From a virus: DNA of 15,140 nt. The translations under genes were made by a program, and so were the position numbers. Shown here piece after piece: positions 727 to 15,140 of this stretch. The stretch lies in the IMG/VR virus record IMGVR_UViG_3300034107_000243. The stretch is one strand, 5' to 3'. The first letter of the stretch is position 1. Every line of letters begins with the position of its first letter. A model generated the notes under the pieces. That model ran no database searches. It worked only from the letters and a program-made list of their open reading frames with translations, and was not told the origin of the DNA.

Positions 727-750
727 AAAGGGCCCCCGATTGGGGGCCCT
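727..750 (-). terminator. Intrinsic terminator hairpin for minus-strand transcripts
   Basis: Perfect 10-bp GC-rich stem AAGGGCCCCC / GGGGGCCCTT with a 4-nt loop. On the minus strand it is followed by the T-rich TTTCCTTATT. It sits 5 nt after the stop of the 60-aa gene. Confidence 0.7.
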
Positions 751-981: not shown

Positions 982-996
982 ACCTACCTTACCAAA

Positions 997-1221
997 CTAC
1001 CCAACCTTGTCAACCTTGTCAGTCGTGTCGGGGGCGCCGAGCCCGTATTGCTTTGTCAGCGGTGTGAGCCATGCGAGGGCGACGGTCGTGAAGGCGCCGA
1101 GCAGGCTGGCCGGCAGCGGTTCGAGATGCGTGGGCAATTCGGTGCTTGCCCAGGCGATGAGGGCGCCGATGAGGAGAAGCATGAGATGACGGGCCTCGGG
1201 GCTGAGCTTGTCGAGCATCAT
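997..1221 (-). CDS. Small membrane protein with two predicted hydrophobic helices, holin-like, 74 aa
   Basis: Hydrophobic segments LMLLLIGALIAWA and LLGAFTTVALAWL. Located in the lysis cassette. ATGA overlap with the upstream gene (1218-1221). Confidence 0.6.
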   Translation of the reverse strand: MMLDKLSPEARHLMLLLIGALIAWASTELPTHLEPLPASLLGAFTTVALAWLTPLTKQYGLGAPDTTDKVDKVG

Positions 1222-10006: not shown

Positions 10007-11173
10007 CTATCCGCCCATCTGTACGAGGCTCGTCGGGGTGAGTCCGAGGGTGTTGAGGTCGATGACGGTGCGGGCCTCGTCGGGGGTGAGGACGCCGAGC
10101 GGCACCAGCTGCGCGACGAGGTTGCCGAGGTCGGTTGCGTTGCCCCGCAGGAAACCGGACGTGTCGAACCTGACCGAGTGCCCTCGAGGCGTGACGTCGG
10201 GCATCGACAGCCGGTGAGTGAGCATGTCCATGACCGGGCGAAGGCTGATGTCGAGCAGTTGCCGGTACAGGTCAACGCGGTTCGAGTACGTCAGCGACGA
10301 CCCGGACACGCTGGCGCCGACCCACACGGGGTCGAGGTTCGCGATACGGGCGATTCCGATCGCGGACTCGTTGCGGGCCTCGACCAGGGCGAGATCCCGG
10401 GCGGACCATCCCATGCCCTTAGCCTCGATCGCGCTATTCAGGTAGGCCGTGGCCCTGTTGCTCCTGGCTTCTTCCCATGCGGTCAGGAGCGCGTCCACTG
10501 TTGCCGCTGGAAGGTCGGCGCCGGTGTTCTTCAGGACCACGGTCGGCATGGGGTACTCGCTGTAATTCAATGTCGCGGCCTCGAGGGCGGCGGCTGTGTT
10601 GATCGCAGCGGCACCGGTCGACAGCCAACCGCCGAGGCCGTCGCCGTAGAACTTAATGACGTCGCGGGCCGGGACTGGCGTGCCGATGTAGTAGAACGGG
10701 TCGACGGGCGGAAACTGTGTGTTCTGGTTCGCCGTCGAGTGCGTGGTGAGGTCGGACACGTCGTCGACGTCCATCACCTGCACCTCGCGAGGGAACCCAT
10801 CCCACGTCCGGTCGACCACAAGCCAGTACGCCCGGTCGTGCAGCAGCAGGTTCTCGACAGTCCTCGCAATGACCGACGTGTACGGAAGATACGAGGATGG
10901 GCTGACAAGTACCTGCGCGGTTTCGATGGGCTCGCCCCCTCGGTATGTCCGCAGGCCGAACCCGCTGATCGTGTGAGAGTACGTCTTCATCGCGTCGACG
11001 AATGCGGGGACCTGCAGCGCGGCGGCCCTCGAGGTACGGAACGACGACCCGGCGCCCTGAATCATCTGCAGCAGTGACGTCCCGGCGCCCTCCCGCAAAG
11101 CCACAGACGGCCCGCCCTCCATCGACCTTGTGGGGGACGGAGGGGCGGACCATCTCGGACGGGGAAACGCCAC
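10007..11173 (-). CDS. Portal protein (HK97 family), 388 aa from the GTG at 11173; alternative ATG at 11122 gives 371 aa
   Basis: Position between terminase and protease-capsid. Portal-like motifs (LLLHDRAYWLVV, NRATAYLNSAIEAKGMGWSARDLALVEARN). The ATG at 11122 has an AAGG SD 4 nt upstream, so the true start is uncertain. Confidence 0.85.
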   Translation of the reverse strand: MAFPRPRWSAPPSPTRSMEGGPSVALREGAGTSLLQMIQGAGSSFRTSRAAALQVPAFVDAMKTYSHTISGFGLRTYRGGEPIETAQVLVSPSSYLPYTSVIARTVENLLLHDRAYWLVVDRTWDGFPREVQVMDVDDVSDLTTHSTANQNTQFPPVDPFYYIGTPVPARDVIKFYGDGLGGWLSTGAAAINTAAALEAATLNYSEYPMPTVVLKNTGADLPAATVDALLTAWEEARSNRATAYLNSAIEAKGMGWSARDLALVEARNESAIGIARIANLDPVWVGASVSGSSLTYSNRVDLYRQLLDISLRPVMDMLTHRLSMPDVTPRGHSVRFDTSGFLRGNATDLGNLVAQLVPLGVLTPDEARTVIDLNTLGLTPTSLVQMGG

Positions 11174-11179
11174 GCGCCC

Positions 11180-11206
11180 ATATTACATGTTTATAACGAT
11201 TGTCAA
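11180..11206 (-). promoter_or_regulatory. AT-rich promoter-like element (TTGACA, 15 nt, TAATAT) between terminase and portal
   Basis: The minus strand reads TTGACAATCGTTATAAACATGTAATAT. It is the only strongly AT-rich island in the structural region. The 15-nt spacer is suboptimal, and the -35 hexamer overlaps the terminase stop. Confidence 0.2.
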
Positions 11207-12960
11207 GCACGTCGACGGCTGTGAATGATCGCCGTCGGCCGTTGCCGCTTCGTCGCCTGAGCAGCCGCGAACATCACGGCACGCGCCGCATACGAGGGGC
11301 CCTCTCCCATCGCGCTAGACAGCACCCACCCGGCGTCCCGCTTTGAGATGCGCGATGACGCGAAGTGCTCGCGCAGGACGAGGCCCCCGTCGTGGAGGAT
11401 CGAGCGCCGGTCGAACAGGTCGAGCAGCGCTTGTGTACCGGCCACCGCCTCCCGCTGGCCCACGAGTTCGTCGAAGTGCTCGTGGAGCCGGTCGACGTAT
11501 CCGGGGGTGACGAGGACGAACAACTGCGGATGCTCGGCGCGCAGCTGCGCGAGACGCTCGTCGACCTGCTTGATCGTCCGCATCGTCGACACCCGGACGA
11601 CCACGCGCTCATCCTCGAGGACACCCGCGACCGCGACCGCATGCCCTTGCCCGTCGAATGCCGACTCGACCGCGACCGTCCATGTGCTCGACTCCGGCAG
11701 GTCAACGTCCGACGTCGTGTCGGCCCACTGGCTGTCCTTGAGCCAACTGCCCGACTTCGTAACCCACTGATTGCACCACTGCCTACGGAACGACGATTCC
11801 TCAAGCGTTGAGTGCTGACGTGCCACGAACGCTTGCCGCTTGTCGGTCCACTCGGGTGACGCCCAGGCCCACGTCTCGGGCTCGTCCGGGTTAGCGTCCG
11901 CCGGCGCCGACCACTCGAGCAGCAGCGTGCTGGCTGGCGCGTCGAGCTGCTCGATCGCTGCCGAGCGATACTGAATCATGAGGTCGCTCGACGAGTCGCC
12001 TGCAGTCGAAACGAGCCACAACTGAGGCTGCTCACGCTCCGACATCGTAGGCATGACCGCGTCGTCGATGACGTTGCGAGAAATCGCCCAGCACTCGTCG
12101 GCGAATACCATGCTGCACGAGTAACCGACGCCGGCAGAATTGTTGGCCGCATGGATCAGCCAACGATCACCACTCGGCAGGCTGATGCCCGCCGCGGCAT
12201 TGCCCCACCTGACCGAGCCCTTCCCGTATCGCTCGAGCGCCCACAGGCCTGCAGGTCGTAGTACCTCCATCGCCGTGTCGCGCTTGTTTGCCATGTGCAG
12301 GATTGTCTGAGGTTCGCCAAACAGGTCCCGGTTATGGAGGCGCCACATGCAAATCCCCCGGCTCAGCCAACTTTTGCCGCTCTGTCTCCCCACGCTCAGA
12401 ACGACAACCGCCCACACCAGGCGCCCGTTCTCGTCGTGCTCGAGCGCCCGATCGAGCGCGTGCCGCTGCCAGCCTCGCAACTCCATCCCGTACACGCTCG
12501 ACAGCCATTCGGCAGCCGCTCCACCGTGAGACCCCCGCACCGTCGCAGGCGCCCTAGTTTCCAACCGGGGTCTCACCCATCCAGCCGGGTCAAACTCGGG
12601 CCGCTCAGGCCCTCCCTTAGGCGATCCGGACCCCTTGGGGGAATAAGAGGCGGGGGACATGGGGAGTGACCTAGGTGTGCCTAAAGAACGGGTTGGGCTC
12701 TTGGCGTGGAGTTTCTTCGCGAGGTTTGCGCCGTGCTTGCGGTTGCAATCGAGGTGCGAGATGCCGGCGCCGTCCATGCTGGGGAGCAGGTCGCCTGTCA
12801 GGGCTAGGGCTGGTTCATGATCGGCGCTAGCACCCCACTTGCTTGTCCTGGGCAATGTCATGTCGACAGGCATGCCGCACCTGATGCATGTGGGATCACA
12901 TGTCGCCATGACTTGAGCGACCCATTGGCGGTAACCGGGGCCTCTGCGGTGGTTGCTCAT
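11203..12960 (-). CDS. HNH endonuclease domain fused to the terminase large subunit, 585 aa
   Basis: The N-terminus carries CIRCG...SADHEPA...HLDCNRKHG (CxxC / DH / H-x2-CN-x2-H HNH motifs). A Ser/Pro/Gly linker follows. The terminase ATPase has Walker A GRQSGKS and Walker B MVFADE, followed by a nuclease domain. It is one uninterrupted ORF. Confidence 0.85.
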   Translation of the reverse strand: MSNHRRGPGYRQWVAQVMATCDPTCIRCGMPVDMTLPRTSKWGASADHEPALALTGDLLPSMDGAGISHLDCNRKHGANLAKKLHAKSPTRSLGTPRSLPMSPASYSPKGSGSPKGGPERPEFDPAGWVRPRLETRAPATVRGSHGGAAAEWLSSVYGMELRGWQRHALDRALEHDENGRLVWAVVVLSVGRQSGKSWLSRGICMWRLHNRDLFGEPQTILHMANKRDTAMEVLRPAGLWALERYGKGSVRWGNAAAGISLPSGDRWLIHAANNSAGVGYSCSMVFADECWAISRNVIDDAVMPTMSEREQPQLWLVSTAGDSSSDLMIQYRSAAIEQLDAPASTLLLEWSAPADANPDEPETWAWASPEWTDKRQAFVARQHSTLEESSFRRQWCNQWVTKSGSWLKDSQWADTTSDVDLPESSTWTVAVESAFDGQGHAVAVAGVLEDERVVVRVSTMRTIKQVDERLAQLRAEHPQLFVLVTPGYVDRLHEHFDELVGQREAVAGTQALLDLFDRRSILHDGGLVLREHFASSRISKRDAGWVLSSAMGEGPSYAARAVMFAAAQATKRQRPTAIIHSRRRA

Positions 12961-13007
12961 GTCGTCGACCCGGTGACGGTTCCATGGTGGTTAAGTACTA
13001 ACGGTTC

Positions 13008-13087
13008 GGGTGACATGGGTGTCACCCCTTGCCTCTAAGGGGGGGTGACATGGGTGTCAGGGGGGGGGTGACACGGGTGTCACCCCC
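13008..13087. repeat. Three GC-clamped 16-bp dyad sites GTGACA-YGGG-TGTCAC (13010-13025, 13045-13060, 13068-13083) flanked by G7/G9 runs
   Basis: Read directly: GGGTGACATGGGTGTCACCC, GGGGGGGTGACATGGGTGTCAGGGG, GGGGGTGACACGGGTGTCACCCCC. They overlap the last codons of the HTH_36-like gene, and the array ends (13008) 48 bp upstream of the terminase start (12960). Confidence 0.85.
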
Positions 13088-13360
13088 GACGGTGATGCGC
13101 TTGCGCCATGTCCACAGGTTTGTCCCCACCTTGTGGACGCCGCATGTGCGCTCGATCCATCCGTCTGCCTCGATCTCTCGTAGGCAACGTTGGACCTGTC
13201 GACCTGAGACACCGGCGCGCCTCGACAGGCTGGAGATGGACGGCCAGCACAGGCCGCTGTCAGTGTTGGCGTAGTCGGCGAGGGCGATCGCGACCATGCG
13301 CGTGCTCGGCGACCAGTGCGCCGGCGCGAAGTCGAGGACGAGGGCTATCGCTTGGATCAT
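13022..13360 (-). CDS. Winged-helix DNA-binding protein (HTH_36-like), 112 aa; possible replication initiator or small-terminase substitute
   Basis: VAIALADYANTDSGLCWPSISSLSRRAGVSGRQVQRCLREIEADGWIER matches the HTH_36 pattern. ATGA overlap with the upstream gene (13357-13360). The C-terminal 20 aa are encoded by the dyad repeats. Confidence 0.7.
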   Translation of the reverse strand: MIQAIALVLDFAPAHWSPSTRMVAIALADYANTDSGLCWPSISSLSRRAGVSGRQVQRCLREIEADGWIERTCGVHKVGTNLWTWRKRITVGGDTRVTPPLTPMSPPLRGKG

Positions 13361-13608
13361 CTGTTCACCTTGCGCCTAAGTCGCTTGCGTTGGGCGTACA
13401 TGGCCTCGCATTGCTTGCAGCGCCATCGCACGTCAGCCCATCTCATCGAATGGCCACGGATGCATACGCCTTTTATCGCCGATATCGAGCGTTTCTGTCC
13501 CCTCAGTGTGGGCAGTTGCTTGTCGATGTTGTGCCGCTCGCATTGCTCGCAGATGTCGAGCACATCGATGGGTTCCTCACATGTCGCGCACCTCACGATG
13601 TCACCCAC
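13357..13608 (-). CDS. Cys-rich zinc-ribbon protein with a basic C-terminus, 83 aa
   Basis: Three CxxC pairs (CATC, CEQC, CKQC) plus VCIRGH, and the tail RKRLRRKVNR. G/C predominates at third codon positions. Confidence 0.55.
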   Translation of the reverse strand: MGDIVRCATCEEPIDVLDICEQCERHNIDKQLPTLRGQKRSISAIKGVCIRGHSMRWADVRWRCKQCEAMYAQRKRLRRKVNR

Positions 13609-14249
13609 GGGTCGTCTTCGACGGGGCCCTTCGACCTCGAGGCCGGCGGGGTCGCCGACTTGAGCAGCGCGTCAATGATGACCGAGGCTTGAGCCTTGCT
13701 GAGTGCGCCAAGGCCCTCGACTGGCAGCTCGAACCCGAGCGACTGCGAGCAGTAGTCGGCTAGGACGGCTTCGTTTATGTGCTGTTTCGACATCGTCGAC
13801 CGCAGCAGGCCGATTTGTTTCGGGGTCGCCGGTGTGGCGCCTTCCTGCCGGTGGCCTCCCGAGGGTGTCCGGTAGGAGCCCATCTCGGCAGACTTCGCCT
13901 GCACCGGGTCGGCCTGTGCTGCCTGTGCCGAGCGGACTTCATTCGCCGAGGCGATGCCTTTGTGGACTGCGATGCCGATACTCGAGCAGGCTCTGCCCCA
14001 TGCGCTGGTTTCGCCGTTCATGAGTTCCGAGCCCTTCGTGTAGGGCGTGCGTCCCGGGATCGGCTCCCAAGCGTGACCGATGCCAGGTCGTGCGTCCTCA
14101 GGCGACCTGTAGGCGTAGGCCTTCACAACGAGCCACTGTTCGCCGTCGCGCATGACGTAGTCCCATTCCGACTGCAGTGAGCCGGTCGGATAGAGCTCGA
14201 TGAATTGCCTGATGCGTTCTGAGACTTCGACGTAATCCTCACGCGCCAT
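13593..14249 (-). CDS. Putative ssDNA-annealing / ssDNA-binding protein (ERF/Rad52-like core), 218 aa
   Basis: The start is taken at the ATG at 14249 (MAREDYVEV...), preceded by GGGGTGAG. The core ...WLVVKAYAY...GETSAWGRACSSIGIAVHKGIAS resembles the ERF-type GxTSYARKYxLxGLFGI segment. The assignment is by eye only. Confidence 0.45.
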   Translation of the reverse strand: MAREDYVEVSERIRQFIELYPTGSLQSEWDYVMRDGEQWLVVKAYAYRSPEDARPGIGHAWEPIPGRTPYTKGSELMNGETSAWGRACSSIGIAVHKGIASANEVRSAQAAQADPVQAKSAEMGSYRTPSGGHRQEGATPATPKQIGLLRSTMSKQHINEAVLADYCSQSLGFELPVEGLGALSKAQASVIIDALLKSATPPASRSKGPVEDDPWVTS

Positions 14250-14541
14250 CGTTCTCACCCCAAAGCACCATAGCGAGGTTGGCCGCTTTGATTGTCTGTG
14301 AGTGCACGGGTCCCCAGCACGCTGCACACTCCTGCTCGAGCGTGACTGCAAGGGCTCGGGCGCGGTCGCGCTCGTCTCGTAGTGCTGCGCCCTTGTGGGC
14401 GAGGCTTGTCGCCATTGCTTGGTATTCCCTCATGATCCCCGTTAGGCGGTTATTGCTGTCCGACAACGTGTTGATGACGCCGAGCAGGTCTGCGACGGTT
14501 AGATCAATTTCTTCCTCATTCGGGCGGTTCATTTCGTACAT
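14239..14541 (-). CDS. Hypothetical helical protein, 100 aa (MYEMNRPNEEEIDL...)
   Basis: The ATG at 14541 is preceded by a strong SD, AGGAAGGGGAAACC. The ORF-track extension to 14658 runs through the repeat array and is rejected. Confidence 0.6.
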   Translation of the reverse strand: MYEMNRPNEEEIDLTVADLLGVINTLSDSNNRLTGIMREYQAMATSLAHKGAALRDERDRARALAVTLEQECAACWGPVHSQTIKAANLAMVLWGENDGA

Positions 14542-14554
14542 GGTTTCCCCTTCC

Positions 14555-14763
14555 TGTCTACCTCTATACAGTTTGTTGTCTAGTGGTAGATATCTAGTGC
14601 TAGACACGGTTGTGTCTAGCGGTATACGGATTCTGTCTAGTGCTGTGCAAGGTTCCATGACGGAAACCTGTCTAGTGTTGTGCAGTTTGTGTCTAGTGCT
14701 AGATATCTAGACGTAGACAATCGCTTGTCTAGGCCTATACATGATCTTGTCTAGTGGTAGACG
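14555..14763. promoter_or_regulatory. Array of ten 16-bp dyad sites TGTCTA-N4-TAGACA-like (operator or iteron array) in the main intergenic region
   Basis: Sites start at 14555, 14577, 14591, 14613, 14634, 14669, 14690, 14704, 14726 and 14748. Eight direct TGTCTA(G/C) cores are spaced 21-22 or 35-36 bp apart. A 52-bp submodule (14577-14628) is repeated at 14690-14741. The region is locally AT-richer. Confidence 0.85.
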
Positions 14764-14890
14764 GCTCCACGGATTCCGTCTTCAGGTAGGCCAGCCTCAG
14801 GGATTGCAGTTGGGCGATTACCTCGAGGCGTGCGTCCCATGTGAGCAGCGCAAACTCCCGAGGGCTCGGCAGTCGCTTGGGCGCCCTCAC
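14735..14890 (-). CDS. Hypothetical small protein, 51 aa (GTG start)
   Basis: The GTG at 14890 overlaps the upstream TGA as GTGA. Moderate G/C bias at third codon positions. The 3' end runs into dyad sites 14726 and 14748. Weak call. Confidence 0.35.
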   Translation of the reverse strand: MRAPKRLPSPREFALLTWDARLEVIAQLQSLRLAYLKTESVEPSTTRQDHV

Positions 14891-15111
14891 TGCTGATTCC
14901 TGACGTACTCGGCGTAGGCCGTGTAAGCCCACTGATACGCGGCCACGCCCTTCAGCCCGTGCTCGTCGCGGGCCTCGATCAGATAGCCCGTGTATGTCGG
15001 CTCGGGCTCCTGATGCTGGTGCCTGTAGTGAATGGCGAACGCTGTCGCGCCACCGTGGCCGTTAGCGGCGCACAGTGTGCAGCGCCACGAATACGTCGCT
15101 GGTTCTAGCAT
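14887..15111 (-). CDS. Small Cys/His protein with a C2H2-like zinc-finger pattern, 74 aa (alternative GTG start at 15138)
   Basis: The pattern is CTLC-x13-H-x2-H-x-H (RCTLCAANGHGGATAFAIHYRHQH). The ATG at 15111 is preceded by GAAGG and overlaps the SLT-like gene stop (the equivalent of 92-94) by 7 nt once the circle is closed. Confidence 0.5.
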   Translation of the reverse strand: MLEPATYSWRCTLCAANGHGGATAFAIHYRHQHQEPEPTYTGYLIEARDEHGLKGVAAYQWAYTAYAEYVRNQQ

Positions 15112-15140
15112 GGGTACGCCTTCACATATTGGACCCACAC
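15014..15140. repeat. Right copy of the exact 127-bp terminal overlap
   Basis: Identical to 1-127. Confidence 0.95.

Follow-up and report, generated by a model that had tools for sequence, protein, structure and literature searches.

The window, by which we mean the whole 15,140-nucleotide stretch of DNA analysed here (IMG/VR virus record IMGVR_UViG_3300034107_000243), carries an ordered array of ten imperfect 16-bp dyads of the form TGTCTA-N4-TAGACA, and this array is the subject of the present work. Positions 1-127 recur exactly as positions 15014-15140, so the assembly is circularly closed, and the window comprises the complete genome of a small, uncultured actinophage, 15,013 bp long, plus this 127-bp terminal overlap. 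The GC content of the genome is 64%, and the minus strand carries every gene that we take as real. Following the direction of transcription, the order starts with a SigA-type promoter (1013-986), a conserved 5' hairpin, a 60-aa gene and an intrinsic terminator (749-727), and continues with genes for an HTH_17 protein, an SLT lysozyme-like protein and a 74/83-aa protein, a 51-codon open reading frame (ORF) and the array. After the array come genes for a 100-aa protein (g100), a 218/252-aa protein (phrog_23738), a variable zinc-ribbon (Zn-ribbon) protein and a 112-aa HTH_36 'O-like' protein (g112), then three GGTGAC-N6-GTCACC palindromes, and finally the HNH-TerL, portal, head, tail and lysis genes. 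A gene at 14887-15138 runs across the circular junction. The coordinates of the array, its parts and the other features are collected in Table 1.

A first-pass annotation of the same sequence had put the array directly upstream of the first gene of a long operon. When the coding strand was searched for a -35 element paired with TAnnnT across a spacer of 16-19 bp, however, the SigA-type promoter was the sole pair found genome-wide. The sole strong terminator lies about 250 nt downstream of it. The array is reached only about 1.4 kb downstream of this promoter and about 1.17 kb past the terminator, inside one long co-directional gene string, and therefore is not an operon head. That annotation was right to report no -10 hexamer, as the coding strand of the array contains no TAnnnT and no promoter-like -35/-10 pair. 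It had further described the locus as a long intergenic region; the array is there, but about 115 bp of that region belong to the conserved 51-codon ORF.

The ten dyads start at 14555, 14577, 14591, 14613, 14634, 14669, 14690, 14704, 14726 and 14748 and follow one another at centre-to-centre spacings of 22, 14, 22, 21, 35, 21, 14, 22 and 22 bp, exactly as first described. On the coding strand the unit reads TGTMTA-sCAC-TAGACA, with the strong half TAGACA and the CAC before it always on the same strand and pointed at the downstream gene, and with a weaker other half. Strong sites alternate with conserved weak sites at 21-22 bp, and the graded classes of half-site that had been proposed are real and conserved in relatives. 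The two arms are related through a tandem duplication of about 113 bp; the previously noted 52-bp duplication (14577-14628 and 14690-14741) is identical at 38 of its 52 positions, and the inverted repeat noted at the centre was likewise recovered. The window and its closest relatives have one 30-bp composite palindrome per arm; most array-bearing relatives keep at least one copy. The suggestion that most sites share one face of the helix holds for neighbours 21-22 bp apart and is limited to them: over all eight direct cores, phasing is coherent at 11.35 bp (R = 0.92) and incoherent at 10.5 bp (R = 0.05). At 44.5% GC the array is the lowest-GC stretch of the genome.

The motif is concentrated in the array to a degree that shuffled sequence does not reach. 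Eleven TGTCTA hexamers occur in the window (in dinucleotide shuffles the mean was 2.85 and the highest count 7), ten of them within 14555-14753. All eight genomic matches to TGTCTA-N4-TAGACA with two mismatches or fewer sit in the array, which agrees with the earlier statement that the motif occurs nowhere else; when three mismatches are allowed, 10 of the 12 matches do, and seven array sites have at most one. A reading frame that is open through the right arm (14542-14658, minus strand), with an ATG in the central spacer and in frame with the 100-aa gene, was judged probably fortuitous: it is open in five of eight close relatives, it lacks both a Shine-Dalgarno sequence and a conserved ATG, and substitutions in the right arm track the spacers, not codon positions.

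Table 1. Features of the array and of its genomic surroundings (positions in the window)
Feature	Position	Strand	Remarks
Intrinsic terminator, GGGCCCCC-AATC-GGGGGCCC-TTT	727..749	-	After the 60-aa gene; the genome's only strong terminator
SigA-type promoter, TTGACA-N16-TAAGGT	986..1013	-	Only one of the genome; junction of 74-aa and 60-aa genes
Three GGTGAC-N6-GTCACC palindromes (13005-13086) and two near-consensus DnaA boxes (13108, 13120)	13005..13128	-	
Shine-Dalgarno GGAAGGGGAAACC and ATG of the 100-aa gene (14239-14541)	14539..14554	-	Abuts the last dyad
Whole array, ten imperfect 16-bp dyads	14555..14763	-	Two five-site arms around a 19-bp centre
Dyad nearest the ribosome-binding site of g100	14555..14570	-	Plus strand, TGTCTAcctcTATACA
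Composite palindrome, 30 bp, TGTCTA-N4-TAGATATCTA-N4-TAGACA	14577..14606	.	Dyads 14577-14592 and 14591-14606, 2-bp overlap
Dyad TGTCTAgcggTATACG	14613..14628	-	Weak second half, conserved as weak
Dyad TGTCTAgtgcTGTGCA	14634..14649	-	Adjoins the centre; TGCACA-type weak half kept in relatives
Central spacer	14650..14668	.	Inverted repeat GGTTCC..GGAAAC (14651-14667)
Dyad TGTCTAgtgtTGTGCA	14669..14684	-	Adjoins the centre
Second composite palindrome, 30 bp	14690..14719	.	Dyads 14690-14705 and 14704-14719
Dyad TGTCTAggccTATACA	14726..14741	-	Holds the stop codon of the 51-codon ORF
Distal dyad TGTCTAgtggTAGACG	14748..14763	-	Within the 3' end of the 51-codon ORF
Conserved 51-codon ORF	14735..14890	-	Start codon (GTG) overlaps the upstream 74/83-aa gene's stop

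For comparison, 111 loci were fetched from IMG/VR, JGI, ENA and Logan assemblies (numbered L001 onwards), about 55 of which belong to the phage family of the window and have the same gene order. A phylogenetic footprint of the array was computed on eight relatives. Pairwise identity was 96.6% in the strong halves, 91.5% in the weak halves, 81.7% in the N4 positions, 77.8% in the centre and 72.0% in the spacers between dyads, compared with 80.3% in the flanking coding DNA. Half-sites that are kept while spacers drift indicate that, judged by this pattern of conservation, the array sites are a protein-binding footprint under purifying selection. The motif is also invariant while neighbouring proteins diverge to 32-59% identity.

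The dyad symmetry claimed by the first-pass annotation is in register, as 81% of cells pair, compared with 18-42% when the partner is slid, but it is not accompanied by covariation, and the weak halves are conserved as mismatched. No compensatory change was seen in the dyads (covariation term +2.78, with observed values matching shuffles, 123/500), even though the array folds better than shuffles (z = -4.3). An RNA or DNA hairpin or cruciform was therefore rejected as unlikely; symmetry in register without covariation, together with conserved mismatches, fits protein recognition of duplex DNA. Scans with Rfam and for tRNAs gave no match.

An array with the same motif is present in many family members, but it is absent from many syntenic relatives (L004, L009, L011, L015, L016, L047-49, L051/52, L067-70, L072-75 and L087) and is therefore dispensable. 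In these array-less relatives the 100-aa gene follows the 51-codon ORF directly, and no site of this kind occurs at all. Across relatives the array dose is zero, three half-sites or roughly 5 to 10 sites, in either of two positions: downstream of the 51-codon ORF, as in the window, or upstream of it, as in L010, L012-14 and L019, a lineage of which L048 is the array-less form. The arrays of L007 and L008 are short by exactly one 22-bp unit, and L053 has a remnant that consists only of TAGACA-N5-TGTCTA-N4-TAGACA, immediately 5' of the ribosome-binding site. The part retained in this mini-array is the end at 14555-14570, which is the most conserved part of the array in relatives. The array always ends 0-6 nt before a Shine-Dalgarno sequence, and the junction between the two at 14539-14554 is invariant among array-bearing relatives. 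By its distribution among these sequences, the array behaves as an accessory, transferable cassette. No gene specific to array-bearing genomes emerged from a presence/absence matrix of 24 loci, and no analogous array with a different motif was found in the distant relatives L021-23 and L061-64. L053 also has an extra gene (1535-1850) between the 51-codon ORF and the mini-array, whose product resembles by eye a Myb/SANT-like helix-turn-helix (HTH) protein (RWSTADDDYLRLMIKAEWDLAKIAQRL).

Within IMG/VR, the 30-bp composite palindrome is confined to the phage family of the window, and the single dyad is found more widely. L088 and L093 are contigs of 20-33 kb that have no protein in common with the window and carry a WhiB gene, which marks their host as an actinobacterium. 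Both contain a homologous two-arm array (L088 at about 11150-11410, L093 at about 1900-2150) with the composite TGTCTA-N4-TGGATATCCA-N4-TAGACA, in which the inner palindrome is changed symmetrically, TGGATATCCA standing for TAGATATCTA. Their spacers are similarly C/A-rich, and the centre contains CCTCATG, where the central-spacer core of the window's relatives recurs as CCCTCA(T/C)GG. In the same orientation as in the window, the array stands between an exonuclease/SSB-like block and a gene for a TOPRIM/AAA_25 primase-helicase. Two further loci bear the motif in other settings: the retrieved stretch of L091 ends in at least seven units of the TGTCTAGGCCTAGACA type, of which five are exact, and the dyad of L095 coincides in part with a leaderless promoter, TAGACA-N18-TACAGT-N6-ATG.

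The dyad also recurs beside one particular gene, whose product of about 100 aa with a C-terminal HTH we name TBR. Its loci L096-L098 were inspected together with five more fetched by protein homology, giving eight distinct loci with 48-100% protein identity from Actinomadura, Nonomuraea, Nocardia, Amycolatopsis, Streptacidiphilus and metagenomes. In 8 of 8, two dyads 22 bp apart lie directly upstream of the TBR gene in the arrangement TAGACA(-35)-N17/18-TAnnnT(-10)-dyad-ATG; both dyads are perfect in five loci, one has a single mismatch in L104 and L107, and in L105 each of the two has one. As an arrangement of sequence elements, two dyads over the -35 and +1 of a gene are the usual signature of an autoregulated operator, and the pairing of the two dyads with the promoter of this small HTH gene suggests TBR as the likely binder of the dyad. 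The 16-bp TGTCTA-N4-TAGACA is identical in the two settings, with N4 variants that include gtgg, ccac and gcac. The TBR operator has its two sites on a real promoter with the regulator gene immediately 3', whereas the window has ten sites that are spaced differently (at 14, 21-22 and 35 bp) and lacks both promoter and regulator gene.

TBR belongs to no Pfam family and has no homologue among GenBank phages; its 131 relatives come from Actinomadura, Nonomuraea, Nocardia, Amycolatopsis, Streptosporangium and Streptacidiphilus genomes and from metagenomes. In five of the eight loci the gene is reverse-oriented between genes that we read as prophage tape-measure and minor-tail genes (for example, L101 1370-1810), an interval that is a typical place for lysogen-expressed genes, and no further dyad was found within about 7 kb of the TBR cassettes. 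The window and all family loci gave no TBR homologue when searched by tblastn with three TBR proteins (best E = 0.25), and comparison of TBR with the profiles of g100 and of the short ORF (sORF) by hhalign gave probabilities below 1%. A literature search for the motif string returned nothing relevant, and as far as we found the TBR operator and promoter are undescribed. Bacterial genomes scanned for three phased CTAGACA units yielded only 7-nt microsatellites and one plasmid-like contig of the cyanobacterium Microcoleus. L035 (Microcoleus sp. contig JAUBRC010000095.1) has at 2400-2580 an array of TGTCTAG(T/C)(G/A)GT direct repeats, upstream of a gene whose product has a ribbon-helix-helix-looking N-terminus and beside tyrosine recombinase and primase-helicase genes; we regard it as an analogy only.

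The reading that we tentatively favour, at a little under an even chance, is that of an accessory operator array loaded cooperatively by a TBR-type regulator in trans and acting as a roadblock or a sink. A dimeric HTH regulator would recognise TGTCTA-N4-TAGACA, and the ten sites would constitute an accessory operator cluster. As these ten sites are accompanied by neither a TBR gene nor a promoter, we infer that the regulator acts in trans; it may derive from a resident prophage, from the host, in which a TBR-type protein would then be present, or from an unrecognised phage protein. It would load cooperatively along strong and weak sites. Upstream of the array are the promoter-proximal genes, and downstream of it are the recombination/replication and late genes; once loaded, the array would block read-through into these downstream genes and double as a high-capacity sink for the regulator. 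The cooperative nucleoprotein platform or multi-operator envisaged by the first-pass annotation fits these data, in that the unit is an operator-type dyad, is under purifying selection and elsewhere covers the -35 and +1 of promoters beside a small HTH gene. The genetic switch that it also entertained, if taken as self-contained, does not fit an array without a promoter in a genome in which no cognate regulator gene was found.

Several points weigh against this reading. That TBR, or indeed anything, binds the dyad is read solely from synteny. Those TBR carriers that have a name are actinomycetes of soil, and the one large metagenome contig that was looked up comes from farmland soil; the 15-kb phage family seems to derive from freshwater samples, judging from one BFVD relative and from the sample series. 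A roadblock ahead of essential late genes looks costly, and its benefit to the phage is not evident. A binder encoded by the phage itself is possible, for example the C2H2-like 74-aa protein, for which the structural model has a predicted local distance difference test (pLDDT) score of 84 and the PDB matches are not significant. Finally, both lineages with a full array place it in the replication/recombination module, which also fits an origin-type function.

This last point leads to the possibility that the array is an auxiliary iteron-type origin or a replication enhancer, bound by an initiator or a host factor beside a main origin near the O-like gene. Its direct repeats with a best period of 11.35 bp, its strong halves on one strand, its two arms around a centre and its GC content, the lowest in the genome, would all suit such a role, and plasmid iterons are spaced at about 22 bp, close to the period of the array. 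The array moreover heads a recombination/replication block that ends in the HTH_36 O-like protein, and in L088 and L093 it lies immediately upstream of the primase-helicase gene, the C-terminus of whose product looks winged-helix. Yet we consider an origin of this kind, although a serious rival, unlikely, and the replication origin of the first-pass annotation is unlikely to be the essential one, given the many otherwise syntenic relatives that have all replication genes and no array. No AT-rich unwinding element is present (at best a 13-mer reaches 77% AT), and neither the array nor its surroundings contain a DnaA box; the putative initiators of the two lineages (g112 here, the primase-helicase in L088) are unrelated while the motif is identical; the L053 remnant of three half-sites is too small for an origin; and the dyad serves elsewhere as a promoter operator. 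In the HTH_36 gene no column separates array-plus from array-minus genomes; the gene co-occurs instead with the GGTGAC palindromes, which overlap its 3' end 45-125 bp upstream of HNH-TerL. These palindromes are found in every close relative, array or not, and are missing from the distant relatives that also lack the O-like gene, and the two DnaA boxes next to them are the genome's only near-consensus actinobacterial ones. From its sequence features, the segment at 13005-13128 is a better candidate than the array for an essential origin or cos region, and the palindromes probably constitute the origin, the cos-binding region or both. In the distant relatives without them (L021 4640-4760), a perfect TTATCCACA DnaA box and a repeated ACCTGTGGA occur upstream of the terminase gene.

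A decoy would use the same sites to a different end: the array would titrate a TBR-type regulator encoded by a prophage or the host and so neutralise a repressor-based defence or derepress the genes under that regulator's control. Ten sites per genome, multiplied by replication, would serve this purpose, and a decoy would account for orphan sites that have neither a cognate gene nor a promoter under their control; the number of copies is both variable and high, with the frequent gain and loss expected under conflict-driven selection, and the TBR cassettes are self-contained among prophage tail genes. A sink, however, needs neither strict orientation, nor a fixed junction with the ribosome-binding site, nor conserved weak sites; the genome has no other TBR-type site needing protection, and sequence data alone cannot separate titration from a roadblock. 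We consider a decoy quite unlikely. Similarly doubtful, in our estimate, is the broader proposal that the array is a portable orphan-operator cassette, carried by a strictly lytic phage and, independently, by a second actinophage lineage as a sponge or prophage-sensing device. An operator array for an unrecognised phage-encoded protein, used in autoregulation or temporal control of the downstream block, we hold to be improbable. The candidates are the C2H2-like 74-aa, the variable Zn-ribbon, the 100-aa and the 51-aa proteins, whose genes occur only in this phage family, but every one of them also occurs in array-less genomes, and the same motif and architecture are found in a phage that shares none of these proteins. 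The four small DNA-binding proteins named by the first-pass annotation (490-708, 13022-13360, 13357-13608 and 14887-15111) fare no better, since none tracks the presence of the array or its invariant motif.

Two further explanations seem to us very improbable. A centromere-like, parC-like partition site for a plasmid-like carrier state would resemble the array in having five plus five repeats around a central core, but Pfam and PHROG scans of the small and flanking ORFs found no ParA, ParM or TubZ-type NTPase and no partition adaptor, no integrase or repressor gene was recognised in the complete 15-kb genome, the centre has no promoter and the array is dispensable; the centromere-like site proposed earlier thus lacks its protein partners. 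The array might instead be a cluster of unusual or activator-dependent promoters with TAGACA as the -35, as it is in the TBR promoters, the L095 promoter and the main promoter of L010-type relatives (TAGACA-N17-TAGAGT at the position of the SigA-type promoter). Without any TAnnnT on its coding strand, however, no site of the array has a -10 partner, and array-less relatives express the same genes without a replacement region.

Among the phage-encoded candidates, the 74-aa protein just upstream of the array has a model with a C2H2-like zinc finger of beta-beta-alpha form, after which come two helices. Fold searches with it gave PDB matches that all had E > 1, DNA-bound C2H2 fingers being among these sub-threshold ones, and the putative reading residues of the finger vary while the array motif is invariant. 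The Zn-ribbon protein (13357-13608, minus strand) is hypervariable: its subtypes, of which there are at least four, share 33-50% identity. The motif CxxCE-x2-(I/M)(D/E)(V/L)xD-x-CxxC is conserved, and L047 is without the gene. It was the sole gene to stand out in the discriminating-column test, as its IDVLD form is found in every array-bearing genome with data, but the link was downgraded: L048 has IDVLD and no array, and the IDVLD and MEL forms differ by conservative substitutions. Its AlphaFold model (pLDDT 56) is too low in confidence for use. The HTH_17, zinc-finger-like, 100-aa and HTH_36 proteins have no residues that discriminate array-plus from array-minus genomes. The HTH_17 protein was rejected as the binder, its HTH being identical in array-less genomes and the protein sharing 48% identity with that of L010-type genomes that carry the same motif. 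PDB sequence searches with four proteins returned nothing useful. The NrdR box, the McbR site TAGAC-N6-GTCTA, the CRP-type TGT-N10-ACA, the DnaA box, dif and attP were also compared with the dyad and set aside as leads only, because their spacing or sequence differs or the enzyme is absent.

The SigA-type promoter is kept in nearly all relatives, with TTGACA fixed and a -10 that retains only TA...T. Right after the -10, at about 940-982 on the minus strand, lies the palindrome or 5'-UTR (untranslated region) hairpin CCTAGGTCGGTC-acaa-GGACCGGCCTAGG, which shows compensatory changes, from CGGTC/GACCG to CAATC/GATTG in L019 and with outer arms TGTCTAGG/CCAGACA in L007; it may serve as an operator or at the RNA level, for example as an antitermination signal ahead of the terminator. 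Because a strong terminator stands just past the sole promoter, substantial read-through or antitermination must occur if the remaining genome is to be transcribed. TerL (11203-12960, minus strand) is a fusion of an N-terminal HNH endonuclease segment (PHROG 338, residues 6-90) with an ATPase and shares 24-30% identity with the terminases of phages of Arthrobacter, Microbacterium, Gordonia and Mycobacterium. We recognised no separate gene for a small terminase, and the 72-aa HTH_17 protein gives a weak match to a TerS PHROG. The short gap between terminase and portal contains the most AT-rich 30-mer of the genome (11180-11209, 73% AT). The remaining large ORFs resemble phage structural proteins by tblastn. 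Neither the genome nor the array matched GenBank phages or PLSDB plasmids by megablast or blastn.

Several known systems share part of this design. The stoperators of cluster A mycobacteriophages (the gp71 sites of L5) are about 30 dispersed, non-palindromic 13-bp sites bound by the phage's own immunity repressor. Like them, the array would consist of promoter-less repressor sites inside transcription units, asymmetric and in one orientation, and both would block elongation, whereas the sites of the window are dyadic, clustered at one locus with one stray TGTCTA elsewhere, and have no cognate gene. The iterons of the lambda origin (the O-some) and of plasmids likewise occur as phased repeats, palindromic in part, that belong to a replication module and have a period near 22 bp, and incA-type control arrays also act by titration. 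The array differs in being dispensable and in having no unwinding element, DnaA boxes or co-varying initiator, and the lambda-like layout, with repeats inside the O-like gene, is represented in the window by the separate set of GGTGAC palindromes. The parC site of plasmid R1 has 11-bp direct repeats, a promoter in its core and adjacent parM and parR genes; it is comparable in its five plus five repeats around a core, but the array has no 11-bp direct repeats, core promoter, parM or parR. Lytic phages may also carry boxes for regulators of the host, such as the few Spo0A boxes that overlap phage promoters in phi29. These too are phage cis sites for a regulator that the phage does not encode and tie development to the state of the cell, whereas the window has ten promoter-less sites.

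Operator and iteron arrays are familiar, and an array of another element's operator is not. Here, a minimal lytic genome maintains under selection an array that has neither a promoter nor a cognate gene, and this array has apparently been exchanged between unrelated phages. Even if its role should turn out to be that of an auxiliary origin or an ordinary regulatory site, a clean 16-bp operator and a candidate regulator family are defined, and natural array-plus/array-minus isogenic pairs are available for experiments. If the regulator acts in trans, the array would represent an interaction at the level of DNA in which a virulent phage engages the host or its resident prophages, be it as a sponge, a sensor or a defence target, and would provide a role for the small HTH gene, widespread and uncharacterised, of the tail-gene region of actinomycete prophages. 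If the sites form an orphan-operator cassette, they would act as an anti-immunity or anti-defence DNA sponge, or would make development dependent on prophage carriage by the cell, and the array-less relatives would be the other side of an arms race.

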